Positions 1,289-6,776 of a stretch of 6,776 nt of DNA are shown here, one piece after another. Positions within the stretch are counted from its first letter, which is position 1, and each line of letters opens with the position of its first letter. The notes under the pieces are model-generated. The model was not told where the DNA came from. It was given only the letters and a program-made list of their open reading frames with translations, and made no database searches. Origin of the DNA: a virus (taxonomy: Duplodnaviria > Heunggongvirae > Uroviricota > Caudoviricetes); IMG/VR virus record IMGVR_UViG_2654587674_000004; one strand, given 5' to 3'. The position numbers and the translations under genes were made by a program.

Positions 1289-1311
1289 TTGGGCAAACCT
1301 CAGCCATTAAT

Positions 1312-2217
1312 ATGGCATCAATTGCTGCAACAAAGTCAGTTGATGTCTCAGGCGATAATAAACACGTGACAACCTCATGTCGTTTTAAAACAGAACTGCA
1401 GGTAAGGTTGCGTATCCGGTTTGATAAATATGACGGTAGCGCAACAACTTTTCTTGGTGATGCGTATATTGATACACAAACGCTTGAAATTAATATGACA
1501 GGCGGTGCTGCCTCAAGGATTACAGCGAGAGTCAGAAAGGACGAAGCTACCGGATGGATTTTTGCAGAGGCAACAATTCAGGCAATTGATGGGGAGTTAA
1601 AAATAGGCTCTCAGATACAGTATTCTCCTAAGCAGAGCGGGGCAACCGTATCTGGTGACTATATTTATCTGGCCACCCCACAAGTAGAAGATGGGCCTTG
1701 TGTATCATCTTTTATTATATCAGGAGCGACGGCGGCGACCCGCGCAAGCGATATAGTTACAGTTCCAATTAAGAATAATCTTTATAATCTTCCTTTTACG
1801 GTTCTTTGTGAGGTACATAAGAACTGGTATAAAACGCCAAATGCAGCGCCACGTGTTTTTGATACCGGCGGTCATCAAACCGGAGCGGCTATTATTCTTG
1901 GCTTCGGTCGTTCAACAGATTACGACGGATTTCCTTATTGCGATATTGGAGGAGCTAACAGACGGGTAAACGAAAACGCATCGCTTGAAAAAATGGTTAT
2001 GGGGATGCGTGTAAAGTCAGAGCAGTCTACGTGCTCAGTAAGTAACGGGCATATATCCAGCGAAACAAAAACCACATGGTCCTGTATTCAGAACACCGCA
2101 ATTATCCGTATTGGAGGCCAGACTACAGCCGGGTTACGTCATTTATTTGGTCATGTCAGGAATTTCAGAATATGGCACAAGGCATTGACTGATGCTCAGG
2201 TGGGGGAGTCAATCTAA
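1312..2217 (+). CDS. Tail-fibre distal / receptor-binding protein with a C-terminal concanavalin-A-like (LamG-type) jelly-roll motif; possibly the distal part of a split tail fibre
   Basis: The C-terminal segment ...GLRHLFGHVRNFRIWHKALTDAQV fits the characteristic closing strand of LamG/ConA-like lectin domains (F-x-G-x-h-x-x-h-R-I-[YW]-x-[KR]-A-L-[ST]). Its reading frame is open from 1228, overlapping the 3' end of stf. Composition is beta-rich and Gly/Thr/Ser-rich. Confidence 0.6.
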   Translation: MASIAATKSVDVSGDNKHVTTSCRFKTELQVRLRIRFDKYDGSATTFLGDAYIDTQTLEINMTGGAASRITARVRKDEATGWIFAEATIQAIDGELKIGSQIQYSPKQSGATVSGDYIYLATPQVEDGPCVSSFIISGATAATRASDIVTVPIKNNLYNLPFTVLCEVHKNWYKTPNAAPRVFDTGGHQTGAAIILGFGRSTDYDGFPYCDIGGANRRVNENASLEKMVMGMRVKSEQSTCSVSNGHISSETKTTWSCIQNTAIIRIGGQTTAGLRHLFGHVRNFRIWHKALTDAQVGESI

Positions 2218-2498
2218 TGAAAGATTTAACACTCAAATTTGCCGACAGGGCCGACTTTTCGGCCTTTATGGAGAGTATTGGCTATTATGATGACGAGTCG
2301 ATGCAGGATGATATTCTTATTGACGTGATAGGTAACGTGTACAAAGAAACCGGAGAACTGACTGAAGATGGCGAACCGGTATGTGTTAAGGAAGACGGAT
2401 ATTTTGTAAACGTGCGCATCATTAATGATTCGCAAATATCGTCATTATTCGATGAATACGTGGTTGCTGTTGAGCATCAACTTCGTGGCTGGATGTGA
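2217..2498 (+). CDS. Small acidic hypothetical protein (93 aa), translationally coupled to the upstream gene; function unknown (possibly a fibre-associated chaperone or adaptor)
   Basis: The stop/start overlap TAATG at 2215-2219 couples it to the upstream ORF. The protein is strongly acidic (many D/E) with no predicted transmembrane segment. I do not recognise the family. Confidence 0.5.
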   Translation: MKDLTLKFADRADFSAFMESIGYYDDESMQDDILIDVIGNVYKETGELTEDGEPVCVKEDGYFVNVRIINDSQISSLFDEYVVAVEHQLRGWM

Positions 2499-2507
2499 GG
2501 AAGAAAA

Positions 2508-3548
2508 ATGGCTACATCGACAGTAATTCCTGATGACATCAAAACGCTAAAATCCGACGTTAGCAAATTAAAAAACGATCAAGGAAGCTACGCAACAAAA
2601 TTATATGTAGACAGCAAAGATGAAATCGTTGGTGACTGGTCTGCTTCATGGTATCAGCAGGTATTGCCAACTAGCGGAGCTATATTTGGGAGAAAACTCC
2701 GCTCAACTCACAGGACGGCAGGTGTTGAGGATGCGTATTGCGAACTATACCTCAAAAAATGGATAGACAGTCCAGGTAACGCAATGGCGCGCCTTAACCT
2801 GAACGATAACGGGACAAACATTTGCTGGGACTTTACCAACCTTTATGGCGGTACGATGATTTTTCCCGGTGACAGCGGATACCTCAAAATGGGTAACTGC
2901 CTTATGTCATACAGCAAGCGTGGAAGTAACGCGCTTATTAAATTTGATTACACCGACACATTACAGATCAAATATGCCAATCATGGGTCAACCATGACAT
3001 TAAACACACAGGGAACCGCTTATGCTGGTGTTACTGCTCAATTGTGGGGCAACTCCAGCCGTCCTGTTGTTTATGAAGTCGGTGTTGATGGTGGCGCTTA
3101 TATGTTCTATGCGCAGAAAAATACCGATAACACCTATATGTTAAGCGTTAATGGTGCATGTCATGCCACCGCATTTAACCAGCATTCCGACCGGGATCTG
3201 AAAGACAACATTCAGGTGATCGATAATGCAACCGACCGCATCCGTAAAATGAACGGCTATACATACACGCTTAAAGAAAACGGTATGCCCTATGCTGGTG
3301 TCATTGCACAGGAAGCTCTGGAAGCAATCCCAGAAGTTGTAGGTTCCGCAATGAAATATCAGGACGGTGCAAGCGGATCGGAAGGTGAAGAAGGTGAACG
3401 TTATTACACAGTAGATTATTCTGGTGTTACTGGCTTGCTTGTTCAGGTAGCCAGAGAGTCAGACGACAGAATAACAGCACTGGAAGAAGAAAATGCAGAA
3501 TTAAAACAAAGATTATCTGCAATTGAGGCGACGCTTGCGTCTAAATAA
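2508..3548 (+). CDS. Tail fibre / tailspike-like protein with a C-terminal intramolecular chaperone auto-proteolytic domain (peptidase S74 / endosialidase-chaperone type)
   Basis: The C-terminal 120 aa (...FNQH-SDRDLKDNIQVIDNATDRIRKMNGYTYTLKENGMPYAGVIAQEALEAIPEVVGS...YYTVDYSGVTGLLVQVARESDDRITALEEENAELKQRLSAIEATLASK) match the conserved S-D-x-x-x-K-x-N-I...G(V/I)IAQE...PE(V/A)V...VDY...coiled-coil pattern of the self-cleaving chaperone domain of phage K1F endosialidase and T5 L-shaped fibre. The Shine-Dalgarno GAGGAAG lies 7 nt upstream of ATG 2508. Confidence 0.75.
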   Translation: MATSTVIPDDIKTLKSDVSKLKNDQGSYATKLYVDSKDEIVGDWSASWYQQVLPTSGAIFGRKLRSTHRTAGVEDAYCELYLKKWIDSPGNAMARLNLNDNGTNICWDFTNLYGGTMIFPGDSGYLKMGNCLMSYSKRGSNALIKFDYTDTLQIKYANHGSTMTLNTQGTAYAGVTAQLWGNSSRPVVYEVGVDGGAYMFYAQKNTDNTYMLSVNGACHATAFNQHSDRDLKDNIQVIDNATDRIRKMNGYTYTLKENGMPYAGVIAQEALEAIPEVVGSAMKYQDGASGSEGEEGERYYTVDYSGVTGLLVQVARESDDRITALEEENAELKQRLSAIEATLASK

Positions 3549-3552
3549 TATT

Positions 3553-3577
3553 AAGGGGCCGAGCGCCCCGTTTTATT
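3553..3577 (+). terminator. Rho-independent terminator after the tail-fibre gene block
   Basis: GGGGC (3555-3559) pairs with GCCCC (3565-3569) around a 5-nt loop, followed by the T-tract GTTTTATT (3570-3577), immediately after the TAA stop at 3546-3548. Confidence 0.7.
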
Positions 3578-3590
3578 GGGTAGGATGAAA

Positions 3591-3884
3591 ATGGATATAA
3601 CACCTTTCCTTCATGCACTTTGTGCTGTGGCTGCGCAGGTACTGGTTGGTCTTTTTACCGGAAACTGGGCTTACGGGGCGATAGCCGGTTGTACGTTCTT
3701 CATTGCTCGTGAACATACCCAGGCAGAATATCGCTGGATTGAAATGTTCGGGCATGGCAAGCGTATGAATATGCCGTGGTGGGGTGGTTTTGATCCGCGC
3801 GTGTGGGATGTGGCAAGCCTGATGGATTTTTCTGTGCCGGTGGTGGCTTGTCTGCTGGTCTGGCTGTTGGTTAATCGTGGGTGA
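3591..3884 (+). CDS. Small integral membrane protein (about 97 aa, 2-3 predicted TM helices), phage moron-like; function unknown
   Basis: Hydrophobic stretches ITPFLHALCAVAAQVLVGLFTGNWAYGAIAGCTFFIA and LMDFSVPVVACLLVWLLV. AGGA at 3582-3585 sits 5 nt upstream of ATG 3591, which I prefer over the track's TTG at 3576 because that lies inside the terminator T-tract. Confidence 0.5.
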   Translation: MDITPFLHALCAVAAQVLVGLFTGNWAYGAIAGCTFFIAREHTQAEYRWIEMFGHGKRMNMPWWGGFDPRVWDVASLMDFSVPVVACLLVWLLVNRG

Positions 3885-4037
3885 AAAAGGGAGTTGTAAA
3901 CGCAACACAGGAAGAGGTGCCGCTTCAGGTTGCTGGGAATAAGCGCCGGGGTCTGTTAAATCATGCCAATACGCTAATCGAGCCAGATATTGAGTAGCCT
4001 GCAGTCCGTCATGGCGTAATCGTTTTGTGATATGCTG

Positions 4038-4106
4038 CACGCCGTATGCAAGGAGCATGATTGCGCTCGACTGGCGAGCGCTCGATAGTGCTACTATTGA
4101 ATGATT
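4038..4106. repeat. Copy A of an imperfect direct repeat of about 70 nt (partner at 5509-5575)
   Basis: Two conserved blocks shared with copy B in the same orientation: cacgccgtatgcaagga (4038-4054; 15 of 17 identical to 5509-5525) and cgatagtgctactattgaatgatt (4083-4106; 22 of 24 identical to 5552-5575), separated by a divergent 28-nt spacer. Weaker similarity may extend about 30 nt further upstream. Confidence 0.7.
4063..4081. repeat. Perfect 7-bp inverted repeat inside the spacer of repeat copy A (hairpin or palindromic binding site)
   Basis: GCGCTCG (4063-4069), 5-nt loop ACTGG, CGAGCGC (4075-4081). No flanking T-tract on either strand, so it is not a typical terminator. Confidence 0.5.
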
Positions 4107-4241
4107 GCTAGTCTAGGCGGATTGTACTTAAGTAATATGACGGTTCAAGGCGTTTAATCTGAAACCAGCCACATATTAGCCTTTTCAAACATTTCCTGAA
4201 CACTCAGGCTTACCTGCTCTTTCTCGTGCTTGCTGGCATTT

Positions 4242-4275
4242 GTGTTGAGCGCCGGTGAATACTCTTACTCAACAC
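4242..4275. repeat. 8-bp inverted repeat with an 18-nt spacer (possible operator-like dyad)
   Basis: GTGTTGAG (4242-4249) and CTCAACAC (4268-4275) are exact reverse complements. Confidence 0.4.
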
Positions 4276-4347
4276 TCCCAGAATTATATCTGTTGCATCA
4301 GGCAGACCATCAAAATTCTTTTGTCATAAACGAGTTCCACGAATAAT

Positions 4348-4366
4348 GTGCCCTATGGTAGGGCAC
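4348..4366 (-). terminator. Candidate weak terminator hairpin downstream of the minus-strand orphan gene
   Basis: Perfect 8-bp stem GTGCCCTA / TAGGGCAC with a 3-nt loop, 64 nt past the stop at 4430-4432. On the minus strand it is followed by ATTATTCG, a weak U-tract, so it could instead be a protein-binding palindrome. Confidence 0.35.
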
Positions 4367-4379
4367 TATTGATATGAAT

Positions 4380-5330
4380 GAGTAGCTAAAAAGATTTTTC
4401 GTTATGTATTAATGTATCTGTCACTTATTTTATAGTAAAGATGATATGCCAGCAAGAAATGGAGTAAATACTGTAATGTGTGCAGATACATTATTAATAA
4501 AGTCCTTATATGCTTCTTTAAAACAGCCGCTTTGGTGACTGGCTGCCAGTGCCTGTACATTATCTATAAGGTGTGATTCTGTCGCGCCATCAAAGTTTTT
4601 CGATTTTATTGCCTCAATCATTTCATTAAATATTGTGGGCTCATTATAATTTGTCGTAGTAGTTGCCGTAGCACCTGAAGAATGTATATTGATACTAGAA
4701 CCGGAAATTCCACTGACATGAATATTAGCTTCTTGTTTCATAAGAGGTAAACCATTCTCCATCTTGTATAGGTCACTATCTTGTAGCATCTGCAATGTGA
4801 TACGTACTGCTGCTAATAGTTGTTCTTGCTTTTTGAATAAGGAACACATCTGTTCTACAGACCAAAGCTGAACTGCATTTTCTTCGCATGTTTTTTTAGC
4901 TATATTTGGCACTTCCGAATCATAATTACCATAAACCCAAGTGTCCTTGAATCTTTCGATAATAGCTGTCAACGTTGGAAATTTACTGAAATCACTATTA
5001 ATGGATAGTAACTCATCAGACATATAAAGTGCCATATCTCTGCCTTCCGCATATACTGCTTCCACTTTATTCCGTGTTGCAAATGGTATTCTTGAAATAA
5101 AACGAAAATCCTCTTCATTTTTTAAATGGACCCAGTCTTTATCAAAACGGCTAAATTCGTACCCTATCGATAACAGTCTACTTATATATTGGGCTACTGA
5201 TTCCAAATCTTTTCTTATGTCCAAAGTATTACTCCTGCTTGTCAACCGAGTCTGTCGGTTTTCTTACAAATGGCTTGTCTTTAAAGTTCTGATTAAAAAG
5301 ACGCTAACCAATACTTAATAATACATGAAA
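4380..5330. other. AT-rich island of foreign-looking composition containing the orphan gene
   Basis: Hand counts on 60-nt lines inside 4441-5040 give about 30% GC, against about 50% in the tail-fibre and sit genes on either side. Confidence 0.7.
4430..5224 (-). CDS. Orphan hypothetical protein (264-271 aa) in an AT-rich island: helical N-terminal region, Ser/Thr/Gly-rich linker and hydrophobic C-terminal tail. Candidate accessory cargo (defence/exclusion, toxin or effector); function unassigned.
   Basis: Longest ORF is 4430-5245 with a TTG start. I prefer the in-frame TTG at 5222-5224 because AGGAG (minus strand, plus coordinates 5232-5236) lies 7 nt upstream of it; there is no in-frame ATG until about residue 71. 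The C-terminus AHITVFTPFLAGISSLL is hydrophobic and the linker reads HVSGISGSSINIHSSGATATTTT. I recognise no family. Confidence 0.6.
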   Translation of the reverse strand: MDIRKDLESVAQYISRLLSIGYEFSRFDKDWVHLKNEEDFRFISRIPFATRNKVEAVYAEGRDMALYMSDELLSINSDFSKFPTLTAIIERFKDTWVYGNYDSEVPNIAKKTCEENAVQLWSVEQMCSLFKKQEQLLAAVRITLQMLQDSDLYKMENGLPLMKQEANIHVSGISGSSINIHSSGATATTTTNYNEPTIFNEMIEAIKSKNFDGATESHLIDNVQALAASHQSGCFKEAYKDFINNVSAHITVFTPFLAGISSLL

Positions 5331-5355
5331 AAAAAGCGCATAAGCTGGCTTTTTT
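5328..5355 (-). terminator. Candidate bidirectional intrinsic terminator between the sit operon and the orphan gene
   Basis: An A8 tract (5328-5335), an imperfect hairpin (AAGC 5334-5337 pairing with GCTT 5348-5351, plus inner GC 5338-5339 pairing with GC 5344-5345 around loop ATAA, with a 2-nt bulge) and a T6 tract (5350-5355). On the minus strand this reads hairpin then U8, about 340 nt downstream of the sitD stop. Confidence 0.45.
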
Positions 5356-5508
5356 ATCAATCGGGAACTGCGGCCCCTTTGCGTATCCTTTTTTGTTTCT
5401 TCACCGTCTGGTCGGTGTTCTGCTGAGACTGCTAATTTCCTGTTTTTGCTAGTGCTGTCTTGGCACTGTCCATCGTGATTGGTGGACTGGTGAAGTTGAA
5501 ACCGCAGA

Positions 5509-5575
5509 CACGTCGTATGCAAGAACGTGCTGCGGCTGGCTGGTGAACTTCCGATAGTGCGAGTATTGAATGATT
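5509..5575. repeat. Copy B of the imperfect direct repeat of about 70 nt (partner at 4038-4106)
   Basis: Blocks cacgtcgtatgcaagaa (5509-5525) and cgatagtgcgagtattgaatgatt (5552-5575), in the same order and spacing (26-nt spacer versus 28 nt) as copy A. Confidence 0.7.
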
Positions 5576-5696
5576 TACAGCCGTTATTGATTTTACATAT
5601 TTTTTGTATGAAAGGATTAGCGCCTCCTCCCAACGTCCGCCCATGACTTTCTGGACTGCAGTGTACTAGCGGACAATGCTGCCCTCGGATGTTGTG

Positions 5697-6554
5697 CTAA
5701 TTGGGGGATAACAGATCCTGTCTATGAGCGTTTCCCTTTGTGCGTGCGTTGAAACTGATAACGGTAAACGTCATGATGAACACAACCGCGAATAAGACGA
5801 CAATCGTCGGAGCTGGTGCGCTGTCGATAAAAAAGGACAGCCAAACACCAGTCATTGAGACTATTACCGATATGCCAGTCGCCAGTAGGAGTGCAATATG
5901 AAAGCGTTGTGTCAGGAGTACCGCAATGGCGCCAGGCGCAATGAGCAGAGAAATGGAGAGAATGATACCTACTGCTTTCAGCGTCGCCACAATGGTCAGG
6001 GAAACCATGCACAGCAGCCCATAATGCAGCCATCGCGTATGCAAACCGCTTACCTGCGCCTGTTGATAATCAAAGCTGAACAGCAAAAAATCCCGCCATT
6101 TTACGCTAATAACAAGTGTAACCAGCCCGGCAATAATCATCGTCTGGATTATATCGCCGATGGTTACCCCGAGCATGTCGCCGAAAAGAATATGGTCAAG
6201 ATGTATGTCTGGTTTGACTGCAATATACAAGATCAGACCTGCGGCAAACATGCCAGAAAAAACAATCCCCATCACTGTATCTTGCTTGATTCGGCTGTTG
6301 TCTTTCAGGTATCCCGTCGCCACCGCGCAGAATACTCCGGCGATAAATGCCCCTGTAGCCAGAGGTAACCCCAGAATCCAGGCAAGCACGATGCCAGGAA
6401 AAACCGCATGACTCATCGCGTCACCCATCAGTGCCCAACCTTTCAGGACCAGAAAGACCGACAGCAGCGCACAGGGTATGGAAACTACCAGTGAAATCAG
6501 CAGTGCGTGACTCATAAAGGTGAACTGCAGTGGCTCCAGTAATAATGCCATCAT
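5697..6554 (-). CDS. sitD: ABC-3 family Mn/Fe transporter permease, SitD/MntD-like
   Basis: 285-aa polytopic membrane protein with the ABC-3 permease pattern (...DAMSHAVFPG..., ...ILFGDMLGVTIGDI...). Its start overlaps the stop of a second upstream permease in an ATGA arrangement (6551-6554), as in sitC-sitD type operons. The SitD versus MntD/other ABC-3 assignment is from context and recall. Confidence 0.8.
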   Translation of the reverse strand: MMALLLEPLQFTFMSHALLISLVVSIPCALLSVFLVLKGWALMGDAMSHAVFPGIVLAWILGLPLATGAFIAGVFCAVATGYLKDNSRIKQDTVMGIVFSGMFAAGLILYIAVKPDIHLDHILFGDMLGVTIGDIIQTMIIAGLVTLVISVKWRDFLLFSFDYQQAQVSGLHTRWLHYGLLCMVSLTIVATLKAVGIILSISLLIAPGAIAVLLTQRFHIALLLATGISVIVSMTGVWLSFFIDSAPAPTIVVLFAVVFIMTFTVISFNARTKGNAHRQDLLSPN

Positions 6555-6776
6555 GAGCGATCCTCCAGCGCTTTATGCGCACGCCGACGATTTGCCAAAA
6601 GCCCATGGGTGGGCGCAAATACAAATGCTAAAAGAAACAGCAGTGTCTGCGCCACCACGATGATTCCACCTGTCGCGCCGTCCAGAAAGTAACTGACCCA
6701 CGCGCCGAGGAAACTGGTTACACTGCCAATAGTTACAGCAATTATGAGCAGGCGGGGAAAACGATCGGTTAACAAC
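6551..6776 (-). CDS. sitC: ABC-3 family Mn/Fe transporter permease, SitC/MntC-like; 3' portion only, the gene continues beyond the window end
   Basis: The C-terminal 74 aa are open to the window edge (...SYFLDGATGGIIVVAQTLLFLLAFVFAPTHGLLANRRRAHKALEDRS), typical of an ABC-3 permease C-terminus. The TGA stop overlaps the sitD ATG. Confidence 0.7.
   Translation of the reverse strand, partial: LLTDRFPRLLIIAVTIGSVTSFLGAWVSYFLDGATGGIIVVAQTLLFLLAFVFAPTHGLLANRRRAHKALEDRS

Follow-up and report, generated by a model that had tools for sequence, protein, structure and literature searches.

What do two imperfect direct repeats around an AT-rich gene in a prophage-like locus stand for: the scar of a cassette insertion, two copies of a structured RNA or regulatory element, or an ordinary part of the phage genome? 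The repeats lie in a 6,776-nt stretch of viral DNA (the window), between the remnant of a tail-fibre assembly gene (tfa) and sitD (Table 1). The first-pass annotation had described two same-orientation copies, A and B, with two shared blocks, and these were recovered unchanged: block 1 (4038-4054 versus 5509-5525) is identical at 15 of 17 positions, and block 2 (4083-4106 versus 5552-5575) at 22 of 24. The copies form a single blastn alignment of 69 columns with 75% identity and 41.9 bits. The best direct match in 200 dinucleotide-preserving shuffles of window positions 1301-6776 scored 25.6 ± 1.9 bits on average and 32.8 bits at most, and 0 of 200 equalled or exceeded the observed score, which places the pair far above chance. 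The spacers between the blocks measure 28 nt (copy A) and 26 nt (copy B), as first noted; they had been called divergent but are homologous between the copies at 18 of 27 positions (hand count), and are not unrelated filler.

An nhmmer profile built from 97 other members of the repeat family matched the window at exactly two places, copy B (E = 1.6e-31) and copy A, the latter aligning to model positions 7-99. From the extents of these matches, the repeat, first put at about 70 nt, is real but slightly longer, ~95-100 nt. The two copies do bracket the AT-rich gene, together with a dinI-like pseudogene.

Table 1. Features of the window between the tail-fibre remnant and sitD.
Feature	Position	Strand	Evidence or remark
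tfa remnant (3′ end of tail-fibre assembly gene)	3887-4019	+	in-frame stop 3994-3996, original stop 4017-4019
Copy A, decayed family member	4034-4127	-	nhmmer 41.3 bits, E = 1.4e-10
DinI-like (MsgA/DinL-type) pseudogene, frameshifted	4154-4340	-	RefSeq annotation of identical genome NZ_CP033884.1
Terminator-like hairpin directly downstream of the 264-aa gene	4348-4366	-	consensus match only: GTGCCCTACCATAGGGCAC then ATTATTCG
AT-rich 264-aa gene (earlier 'orphan')	4430-5224	-	RefSeq CDS WP_000354607.1; GC 0.356
'X' extension, conserved non-coding segment	5320-5498		adjoins the unit on its left side in some prophages
Copy B, intact family member, 3′ of sitD	5499-5596	-	nhmmer 108.7 bits
Right-hand extension TTTTTTGYATGAGAGGATT..CCTCCTCCC...	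5597-5657		common to the lambda ea47-ea31 spacer and the CB209 site
sitD, last gene of the leftward sitABCD operon	5697-6554	-	Pfam ABC-3, E = 1.9e-75; RefSeq annotation

On the left side, the tfa remnant translates as ATQEEVPLQVAGNKRRGLLNHANTLIEPDIE*PAVRHGV when set against the C-terminus of lambda Tfa, it is followed by the lambda-type tfa trailer TCGTTTTGTGATATG, and positions 3990-4040 share 86.5% identity with the 3′ end of lambda tfa. Copy A lies 3′ of the dinI-like pseudogene, whose C-terminus, read by eye, is ...MFEKANMWLVSD as compared to ...MFEESDMWLVSE in phi80 DinL, and the copy itself resembles the phi80-type subfamily. It has kept the conserved block of the family, and a 4-nt deletion together with substitutions has disrupted its terminator hairpin. 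Positions 4063-4081 now form a perfect palindrome (GCGCTCG-ACTGG-CGAGCGC), and the fold of copy A is no better than that of shuffled sequences on either strand (z = -0.71 and -0.57).

Copy B is the nearest hairpin downstream of sitD. Its stem (5502-5535; CCGCAG-A-CACGT / ACGTG-CTGCGG, 6 + 5 bp with a one-base bulge) is followed on the minus strand by UUUCAACUU, the complement of 5493-5501 and a weak U-tract, while the conserved block occupies 5536-5596; the minus strand folds at -27.5 kcal/mol (z = -2.86). The X extension to its left has blastn matches of 78-85% identity at 15 or more other loci, in every case immediately next to the unit; it has stops in all frames, and the window and locus L005 share no open frame in it. 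The right-hand extension is the second commonest right-flank class in the family, and the match to strain CB209 reaches query position 168. Sequence specific to sitD starts only beyond this extension.

The repeats belong to a family found in 5413 of 5426 complete Escherichia coli genomes, with a median of 3 places per genome and at most 11, and in 196 phage records, including lambda, HK97 and phi80. A scan of species-representative genomes with an exact pattern returned mostly chance matches and lambda contamination, the true matches being in Escherichia and Shigella only. All copies whose surroundings were inspected lie in a prophage or phage tail-end. Over ~100 nt the copies are conserved at 90% or more, and at both edges this falls to ~40-50%, so that the unit has sharp boundaries; it consists of a hairpin with compensatory changes, then a block of ~60 nt that hardly varies. 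We found no published description of the unit and no name for it, phage lambda included, and a literature search on lambda ea47 and ea31 returned nothing on their spacer.

The surroundings of the unit are highly diverse: 144 copies fall into at least 35 classes by their left flank and at least 27 by their right flank. A conserved segment with many unrelated neighbours on both sides is a feature of a mosaic joint, or linker, and the unit has this feature. Among 127 distinct contexts, the left flank holds Tfa in 32 and Pin in 12, both on the plus strand, and the right flank holds in 46 a DinI-like gene on the minus strand, whose stop codon is ~10 nt away. The right flank can also hold an HNH nuclease with an AAA ATPase (lambda ea31 and ea59), a SIR2 gene, a YkgJ gene, sitD, and sib/attP/int. 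The unit or its hairpin is located 3′ of dinI-like, sitD, ea31, ea47, SIR2, methyltransferase-like and GIY-YIG-like genes. The arrangement seen in the window is not unusual: 25 of 165 loci carry two direct copies 1-3.3 kb apart around leftward genes, and in lambda ea47 is bracketed by a partial copy that follows tfa and a full one in the ea47-ea31 spacer. The expectation that the repeats recur at cargo boundaries was borne out in many genomes and phages. They are indeed a dispersed element, with about three copies per E. coli genome, but not one unrelated to boundaries, as they occur at prophage module junctions only.

The hairpin is supported by covariation. Changes on both sides were found in 9 of 11 pairs; the number of cells with both-side changes was 47, versus 13.6 in shuffles (reached in 0 of 500), and 92.9% of hairpin cells were paired, versus 25-46% with the partners slid. 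The suggestion that the repeats might be a structured RNA or regulatory element is therefore partly right, in that the unit contains a hairpin supported by covariation. Which strand folds is not decided by the tally of G-U versus A-C pairs (18 favour the plus strand, 12 the minus strand), and the pair counts of helix 3 are biased because the search pattern fixed one arm of this helix. In 79 of 149 copies, the plus strand has 5 or more A among the 8 nt 5′ of the stem, equivalent to a U-tract on the minus strand; both lambda copies are without one. The plus-strand sequence after the stem is YUGGCUGG.

For the copy in the K-12 Qin prophage, published Term-seq data show RNA 3′ ends within the U-tract, at 1632571(+) and 1632574(+), on the strand corresponding to the minus strand of the window. 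This 3′ end was classed as 'orphan', having no same-strand gene upstream. The K-12 Qin homologue thus has an in vivo RNA 3′ end on a U-tract following the stem, as an intrinsic terminator should, and is the one copy for which this was shown. Copy B has the stem of an intrinsic terminator, and copy A, with its broken hairpin, does not. By its likeness to the Qin copy, copy B itself may terminate transcription. Given the weak U-tract of copy B and its absence from the lambda copies, termination efficiency probably varies between copies.

We consider it probable that the repeats are paralogous copies of a lambdoid unit of ~100 nt that sits at the junction between the late operon and the accessory genes, forms a terminator on the minus strand, and is a place where cassettes are swapped and stacked. 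The unit would mark the point at which the rightward late operon, ending in tfa or pin, meets the leftward 'b region' accessory genes near the attachment site. Read on the minus strand, it would provide a common 3′ end for the leftward genes, made up of the ~60-nt block, the GC-rich hairpin and, mostly, a U-tract, and would stop accessory-gene transcription from running antisense into the tail-fibre genes. The genes served would be sitABCD at copy B and, formerly, the dinI-like gene at copy A. Since many different accessory genes end in the same 100 nt, homologous recombination between prophages could swap or stack cassettes, and stacking would leave diverged direct copies around each cassette; the mosaic pattern points to recombination as the process. 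In the window, one module would comprise the tfa remnant, copy A and the dinI-like pseudogene, and the 264-aa gene with the X segment would have been joined to a second module of copy B and sitDCBA. Some observations sit uneasily with this explanation. The near-invariance of the 60-nt block is unexplained by termination alone, the small RNA CssrB has been modelled with its 3′ end at a homologous hairpin on the opposite strand, and the 'orphan' 3′ end in K-12 implies transcription there other than accessory-gene read-through.

The first-pass annotation had favoured a recombinational insertion or cassette exchange with att-like or hotspot boundary repeats. On the att-like reading, the repeats would be att-like sites or a target duplicated by the site-specific insertion of a cassette. 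Direct repeats that bracket a module, and a single copy in a related genome, are what such an event would leave, but we now regard it as extremely improbable. Identity between the copies is only 75%, and indels separate them (they differ by 2 nt in length, and the hairpin of copy A has the 4-nt deletion); they therefore do not derive from one insertion event. The module encodes no integrase or recombinase, only the dinI-like pseudogene and a 264-aa protein of unknown family. The unit is also well away from the att cores in lambda, HK97 and phi80: the lambda units are near 22570 and 24160-24260 and the att core is at 27724-27738, and in HK97 (locus L011) the unit (3003-3101) is ~190 bp from the attP core (3288-3308), beyond sib. 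The related strain CB209, which lacks the module, has one copy between a tfa remnant and sitD, so that a single copy was found as predicted, but the site is not cleanly empty, since the tfa remnants of CB209 and of the window are different alleles; CB209 is thus unlike the window on the left side as well. The repeat pair is most probably a phage mosaic joint of the ordinary kind rather than the scar of an integration. What stands of the earlier proposal is a part of its hotspot reading, as the repeats recur at the boundaries of accessory genes.

The sequences known as attB sites inside prophages provide a further comparison. Nakamura et al. 2021 (PMC8112680) described, for the tail-fibre-distal end of lambdoid prophages, effector loci that can be exchanged and attB sites that lie within the prophage. 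The neighbourhood, from the tail-fibre genes to the prophage end, and the accumulation of accessory genes are the same as for the unit. Those attB sequences, however, were acquired from host loci (yecE, ykgJ-ecpE and ompW) and serve integrases as sites, whereas the unit belongs to the phage backbone, has no link to an integrase and is unrelated to them. An identity of the repeats with these sites was rejected on account of their host origin, which also speaks against an att-like origin of the repeats.

The remaining readings give the unit a function or mobility of its own. The least improbable, though still unlikely, is that it encodes a small regulatory RNA or a 3′-UTR-derived small RNA of ~85-100 nt on the minus strand, of which the repeats would be two gene copies, one of them dead; such an RNA would have a stem-loop closed by GGCUGG/CCAGCC, with the invariant loop as a seed or protein-binding site, followed by the terminator. 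This would agree with conservation of at least 90% in the 60-nt block, as against hairpin stems that have drifted through compensatory changes, with a compensatory GGCTGA/TCAGCC subfamily of the closing helix, and with minus-strand folds of copy B and of the HK97 and lambda copies that beat shuffles (z = -2.9 to -3.4). The 'orphan' 3′ end at the K-12 Qin copy, which has no gene upstream on its strand, and a TAAAAT hexamer at the right edge of the unit, read from the alignment by eye, point the same way. However, searches upstream of the K-12 copy and in the window found no consensus promoter, a -35 element would have to lie in the variable flank, and the covariation of helix 2 may stem from one lineage. 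No Rfam family matches the minus strand of the unit, and our search found no published 5′ end, Northern blot or Hfq-binding data for it. Such an RNA would overlap with the terminator explanation and is compatible with it.

That the unit is an unannotated small RNA, or one derived from a 3′ UTR, with an invariant-loop stem-loop and a terminator, whose conserved loop acts on a phage or host target, is more doubtful still. If so, nearly every E. coli genome, and also lambda, would carry a multi-copy prophage small RNA, with the repeats of the window as a live and a dead RNA gene, and its targets could include late-operon read-through transcripts, which are perfectly antisense to the unit RNA. A search of the enteropathogenic E. 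coli (EPEC) RIL-seq tables by gene name returned nothing relevant.

A small non-autonomous mobile element of the MITE, REP or ERIC-like kind would account for the sharp ends, the at least 27 different flanks on each side and the several copies per genome. It is nevertheless very unlikely, given that the unit keeps one orientation with respect to tfa, pin and dinI-like genes in all but one of 91 classified flanks, that terminal inverted repeats and target duplications are absent from the alignment as read by eye, and that the inspected copies all lie in prophage or phage tail-ends. Scarcely credible, too, is a coding origin of the conserved block, as what is left of a small ORF or of a protein-coding 3′ end. 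The unit is spanned by two open minus-strand frames (5304-5633 and 5432-5644), and in some genomes PGAP places a 'capsid protein' pseudogene fragment over it. However, one frame has a stop in CB209, substitutions read by eye fall at first and second codon positions in both frames, and Pfam finds nothing in either ORF. The flanks differ between copies, and the unit ORFs therefore have no conserved start codon. On the basis of the stops, the variable starts and the substitution pattern, the small-ORF reading was rejected.

The preferred reading, a junction unit carrying a terminator, has several known counterparts. Intrinsic terminators between convergent phage operons, such as lambda tI/sib, have in common with the unit a GC-rich hairpin (covarying in the unit), a U-tract (in most copies of the unit), a place between convergent genes and an experimentally mapped RNA 3′ end, the last for the K-12 copy; in HK97 the unit comes directly after sib/tI. 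It differs from them in its additional near-invariant block of ~60 nt, which terminators do not need, and in that some copies lack a U-tract; no RNase III retroregulation is implied for it. The modular theory of lambdoid phage evolution, reportedly set out by Botstein in 1980, is said to include conserved boundary or 'linker' sequences. The unit resembles these linkers in being a short conserved segment between exchangeable modules, with many neighbours and with leftward genes ending in it; it differs in being stacked as direct repeats around single cassettes, presumably by recombination. A moron is an autonomous promoter-gene-terminator cassette in a lambdoid phage, and terminators flanking morons were reportedly described by Juhala and colleagues in 2000. 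The accessory genes share with morons a terminator of their own, since the unit or its hairpin lies 3′ of them.

Among known RNAs, CssrB (Rfam RF02799), a small RNA of Shigella flexneri, has a modelled 3′ hairpin homologous to that of the unit. At 23.4 bits, the match is below the gathering threshold of 76; it covers the hairpin only and is on the strand opposite to the proposed reading; CssrB is a transcript of ~180 nt on Northern blot, and its 3′ end was predicted and not mapped. An E-value scan of the whole window against Rfam, on both strands, returned no family covering the unit; the matches were the sub-threshold CssrB hairpin, IS009 over the tfa remnant and a chance DnaX. The Hfq-dependent prophage small RNAs of pathogenic E. 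coli (PasA to PasD, AgvB, AsxR and Esr41) are likewise short intergenic RNAs of lambdoid prophages that end in an intrinsic terminator, but the unit is far more widespread than any of them, and AgvB, AsxR and Esr41 have no Rfam match in the window. EPEC PasB was suspected because its flanks are reportedly rich in IS009 matches. It was rejected, as its coordinates do not match and its Northern probe AATCCCGCAGTGATCGCGGAGCT has no counterpart in the unit, which is thus not PasB; this counts against the small-RNA reading.

For this window, the consequence is small: the repeats are a common phage junction sequence, and no new insertion mechanism is called for. As a family, the unit is a precise landmark for the left edge of the lambdoid accessory-gene zone, which holds defence genes, sitABCD and dinI-like genes, and it could aid the automatic delimiting of accessory-gene cassettes. 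A role besides termination is hinted at by the near-invariance of the 60-nt block and by the 'orphan' RNA 3′ end in K-12, which is unexplained.

The AT-rich gene between the repeats had been labelled an orphan, and this label does not hold, as 85 homologues with 32-76% identity were found for its 264-aa product, in Pseudomonas, Vibrio, Enterobacter, Klebsiella and others. The protein belongs to an uncharacterised family widespread in Gammaproteobacteria. Its gene starts with TTG at 5224, with AGGAG in front. Promoter-like sites in a consensus scan of the window were no more numerous than in shuffles, and none was clearly placed for this gene. No match to the protein was found in Pfam or PHROGs, and a Foldseek search with its AlphaFold2 model returned no match in the PDB. 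The model itself is all-helical (pLDDT 84.5), and the protein shows a weak match to PADLOC PDC-M14B (E = 0.0017).

The window is identical (100%) to part of the E. coli 50579417 chromosome (NZ_CP033884.1) and covers the tail-fibre end of a lambdoid prophage that sits where K-12 has Rac, with uspF and ompN downstream. The Ala/Ser-rich region of the side tail-fibre gene contains 21-nt and 189-nt tandem repeats (~365-1040), and the source genome has an IS200C element immediately upstream of this gene, whose N-terminal part is annotated as a pseudogene (L001 1764-2709). A strong terminator-like hairpin (3555-3569) separates the second tail-fibre gene from a 102-aa ORF encoding a predicted membrane protein of unknown function, and about half of all E. 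coli genomes contain sequence homologous to this ORF. The tfa remnant is overlapped by a weak match to Rfam IS009 (3865-3978; 19.9 bits against a threshold of 117), a candidate RNA family that appears to consist at least partly of tfa coding sequence.

Features of the window, with positions in window coordinates
Feature	Position	Strand	Remarks
Side tail-fibre gene, disrupted	8-1288 and 1312-2217		Frame stop at 1288, second ORF from 1312
Tail-fibre gene with endosialidase-chaperone domain	2508-3548		
Conserved membrane ORF, 102 aa	3576-3884		phrog_1443
tfa 3'-end remnant	3887-4019		
Copy A	4034-4127	minus	Right of tfa remnant
dinI-like pseudogene	4154-4340	minus	Frameshifted
264-aa gene	4430-5224	minus	GC 0.356
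X, conserved non-coding stretch	5320-5498		
Copy B	5499-5596	minus	Between X and sitD
sitD and sitC		minus	Right of copy B

The first-pass annotation described two direct repeats bracketing the AT-rich 264-aa gene and two candidate terminators, and its description is accurate: 15 of 17 positions agree in the first matching block and 22 of 24 in the second, with spacers of 28 and 26 nt. The bracketed segment (the module) also includes the dinI-like pseudogene. The spacer has indeed diverged, but it is homologous sequence rather than filler. Copies A and B align as a single stretch (69 columns, 75% identity, 41.9 bits), compared with a best direct match of 25.6 ± 1.9 bits on average, and 32.8 bits at most, in 200 dinucleotide-preserving shuffles. 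The copy A spacer includes a perfect 7-bp palindrome, GCGCTCG-ACTGG-CGAGCGC (4063-4081), where the family has GCGGCTGGCTGGTGAAC; it may be a chance product or a replacement hairpin.

By blastn, copy B has matches in 5413 of 5426 complete E. coli genomes (median 3, maximum 11 places per genome) and in 196 phage records, among them lambda, HK97, HK106, phi80 and many Stx phages. Distinct copies were gathered from viral contigs and genomes using two independent patterns, one for the conserved block and one for the hairpin loop, and both sets gave one and the same unit of ~100 nt. The unit starts with the hairpin CCGCAG(N)CACGT - GTATGCAAGAA - ACGTGCTGCGG, followed by a ~60-nt block, TTGGCTGGTGAACTTTCGATAGTGCGAGTATTGAATGATTTCCAGCCGTTACCGATTTTACG; conservation is at least 90% within the unit and drops to ~40-50% at either edge. 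A search of the window with the family profile returned exactly two members, copy B (108.7 bits) and copy A (41.3 bits, E 1.4e-10). We conclude that both repeats belong to a junction unit conserved in lambdoid phages.

The fold of copy B consists of a stem-loop closed by GGCUG/CAGCC and then a terminator hairpin (–27.5 kcal/mol, z –2.86), while in copy A a 4-nt deletion has destroyed the hairpin, and this copy folds no better than shuffles. Across the family, 9 of the 11 hairpin pairs have changed on both sides, for example CCGTAG/CTACGG, CCGCCGCA/TGCGGCGG and ACAGCGGTA/TACCGCTGT. Doubly changed cells number 47 versus 13.6 in shuffles, a count reached by 0 of 500 shuffles, and 92.9% of cells are paired, versus 25-46% with partners slid. 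The hairpin is under selection for pairing, and the earlier suggestion of a structured element is thus partly right. Most copies have a U-rich tract after the stem when read on the window's minus strand, with at least five U within 8 nt in 79 of 149 copies (such as UUUUUCUUUUU and UUUUCUUUAU); the plus-strand sequence after the stem is YUGGCUGG. Term-seq of K-12 (Adams et al. 2021, PMC7815308, supplementary file 1) placed 3' ends at 1632571(+) and 1632574(+), and these positions are the U-tract of the copy in the Qin prophage, on the strand corresponding to the window's minus strand. We conclude that the unit has at its core a probable intrinsic terminator of leftward accessory genes; the sitABCD transcript most likely ends at copy B, and copy A would be the defunct terminator that once served the phi80-type dinI-like gene, itself now dead. 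Since G-U versus A-C pair counts do not discriminate between the strands, and the modelled end of the Shigella RNA CssrB is a homologous hairpin but on the other strand, the hairpin may work in both directions.

Examination of 127 distinct contexts revealed a fixed orientation of the unit relative to its neighbours. In 32 contexts the left neighbour is the tfa 3' end, lying on the same strand, and in 12 it is that of the invertase gene pin; on the right, 46 contexts have a dinI-like gene on the opposite strand, its stop codon ~10 nt from the unit. Annotated records also show, on the right, lambda ea31 and ea59 (HNH nuclease, AAA ATPase), a SIR2 gene, a YkgJ gene, sitD and, for HK97, the sib/tI site with attP and int beyond it. 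These neighbours, together with at least 35 left and at least 27 right flank sequence classes, place the unit at the exact meeting point of the rightward late operon and a leftward, highly variable accessory region. The reading of the repeats as boundary elements is partly borne out, as the unit recurs between tfa or pin and varied leftward accessory genes. The stretch X (~160-180 nt), which has stops in all frames, adjoins the unit's left edge in at least 15 other prophage loci, and its far-left end (5331-5356) carries an A-run, hairpin, T-run motif.

Bracketing by two copies is also found in lambda (NC_001416), where a partial copy directly after tfa (~22570-22620; L010 1072-1117) and a full copy between ea47 and ea31 (~24160-24260; L010 2661-2757) enclose ea47; neither has a feature in the RefSeq record. 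Two direct copies 1-3.3 kb apart occur in 25 of 165 matched loci, ten of the 25 being lambda itself, mostly as contaminating contigs. The genes enclosed in distinct arrangements are leftward (for example methyltransferase-like, GIY-YIG-like and ClpP/SppA-like), and, as in the window, one copy is usually partial or decayed. The related strain CB209 has the same tail-fibre genes and sit operon without the module, and carries just one copy, flanked by a tfa remnant and sitD. The single copy expected at an empty site is thus present, but the CB209 tfa remnant is another allele than the window's, so the two genomes are separated by a replacement rather than a clean insertion. This replacement ends on one side within or close to the 102-aa ORF and on the other side at copy B.

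Because these 100 nt form the shared end of many unrelated accessory genes, the unit provides homology through which co-resident or infecting lambdoid phages may recombine, and cassette stacking would leave diverged direct repeats. From the mosaic pattern, we infer that recombination may have given rise to the repeats. An att-like scar, the other origin proposed for them, is rejected because identity between the copies is only 75%, no recombinase gene is present in the module, known attP cores do not coincide with the unit, and the known attB sequences inside prophages are different and derive from the host (Nakamura et al. 2021, PMC8112680). The repeats are best read as a terminator and mosaic joint.

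The near-invariance of the 60-nt block goes beyond what termination alone explains, and we give a minority chance to the unit being an overlooked small RNA or 3' UTR-derived RNA, very widespread in phages. The closing helix GGCTGG/CCAGCC, which has a compensatory subfamily GGCTGA/TCAGCC, would fit such an RNA, as would the 3' ends at the Qin copy (NC_000913.3 1632470-1632575; L008 2470-2569), which are classed as 'orphan', with a further orphan end at 1632744(+) (Adams et al. 2021, PMC7815308). No annotated gene lies upstream on the same strand; however, no consensus promoter is found there either, which speaks against an independent transcript. The candidate RNA has no counterpart in Rfam, and PasB was ruled out as its identity.

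The 264-aa gene had been regarded as an orphan, yet it has 85 homologues (32-76% identity) across Gammaproteobacteria, and its product belongs to a widespread, uncharacterised family predicted to be all-helical. A disordered stretch is predicted for residues 163-193, and the protein has a hydrophobic C-terminus. Searches of Pfam, PHROGs and PADLOC and a fold search returned no function; one of the homologues' UniRef names reads 'AbiTii domain-containing protein'. Paralogues in E. coli occur beside genes for a reverse transcriptase and a SMEK_N-domain protein, or at other places in prophages; these surroundings fit a mobile accessory gene, possibly one for defence.

Some genomes (for example L006 3028-3096) have a PGAP 'capsid protein' pseudogene, interrupted by stops, placed across the non-coding unit; this probably reflects a spurious match at the protein level. 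Seven contigs with the lambda arrangement, identical in scores and spacing (L134, L139, L153, L164, L182, L198 and L199), are assigned to a Chromatiales MAG, Chromatium weissei, Pseudomonas sp., a Legionellaceae MAG, Neobacillus, Shewanella and Oceanobacillus, and matches to the exact pattern also came from several contigs of very short length and low coverage that are labelled Streptomyces, Enterococcus, Vibrio and Pseudoxanthomonas. These off-taxon contigs look like lambda DNA contamination of public assemblies, the lambda arrangement having been checked in the seven listed loci.
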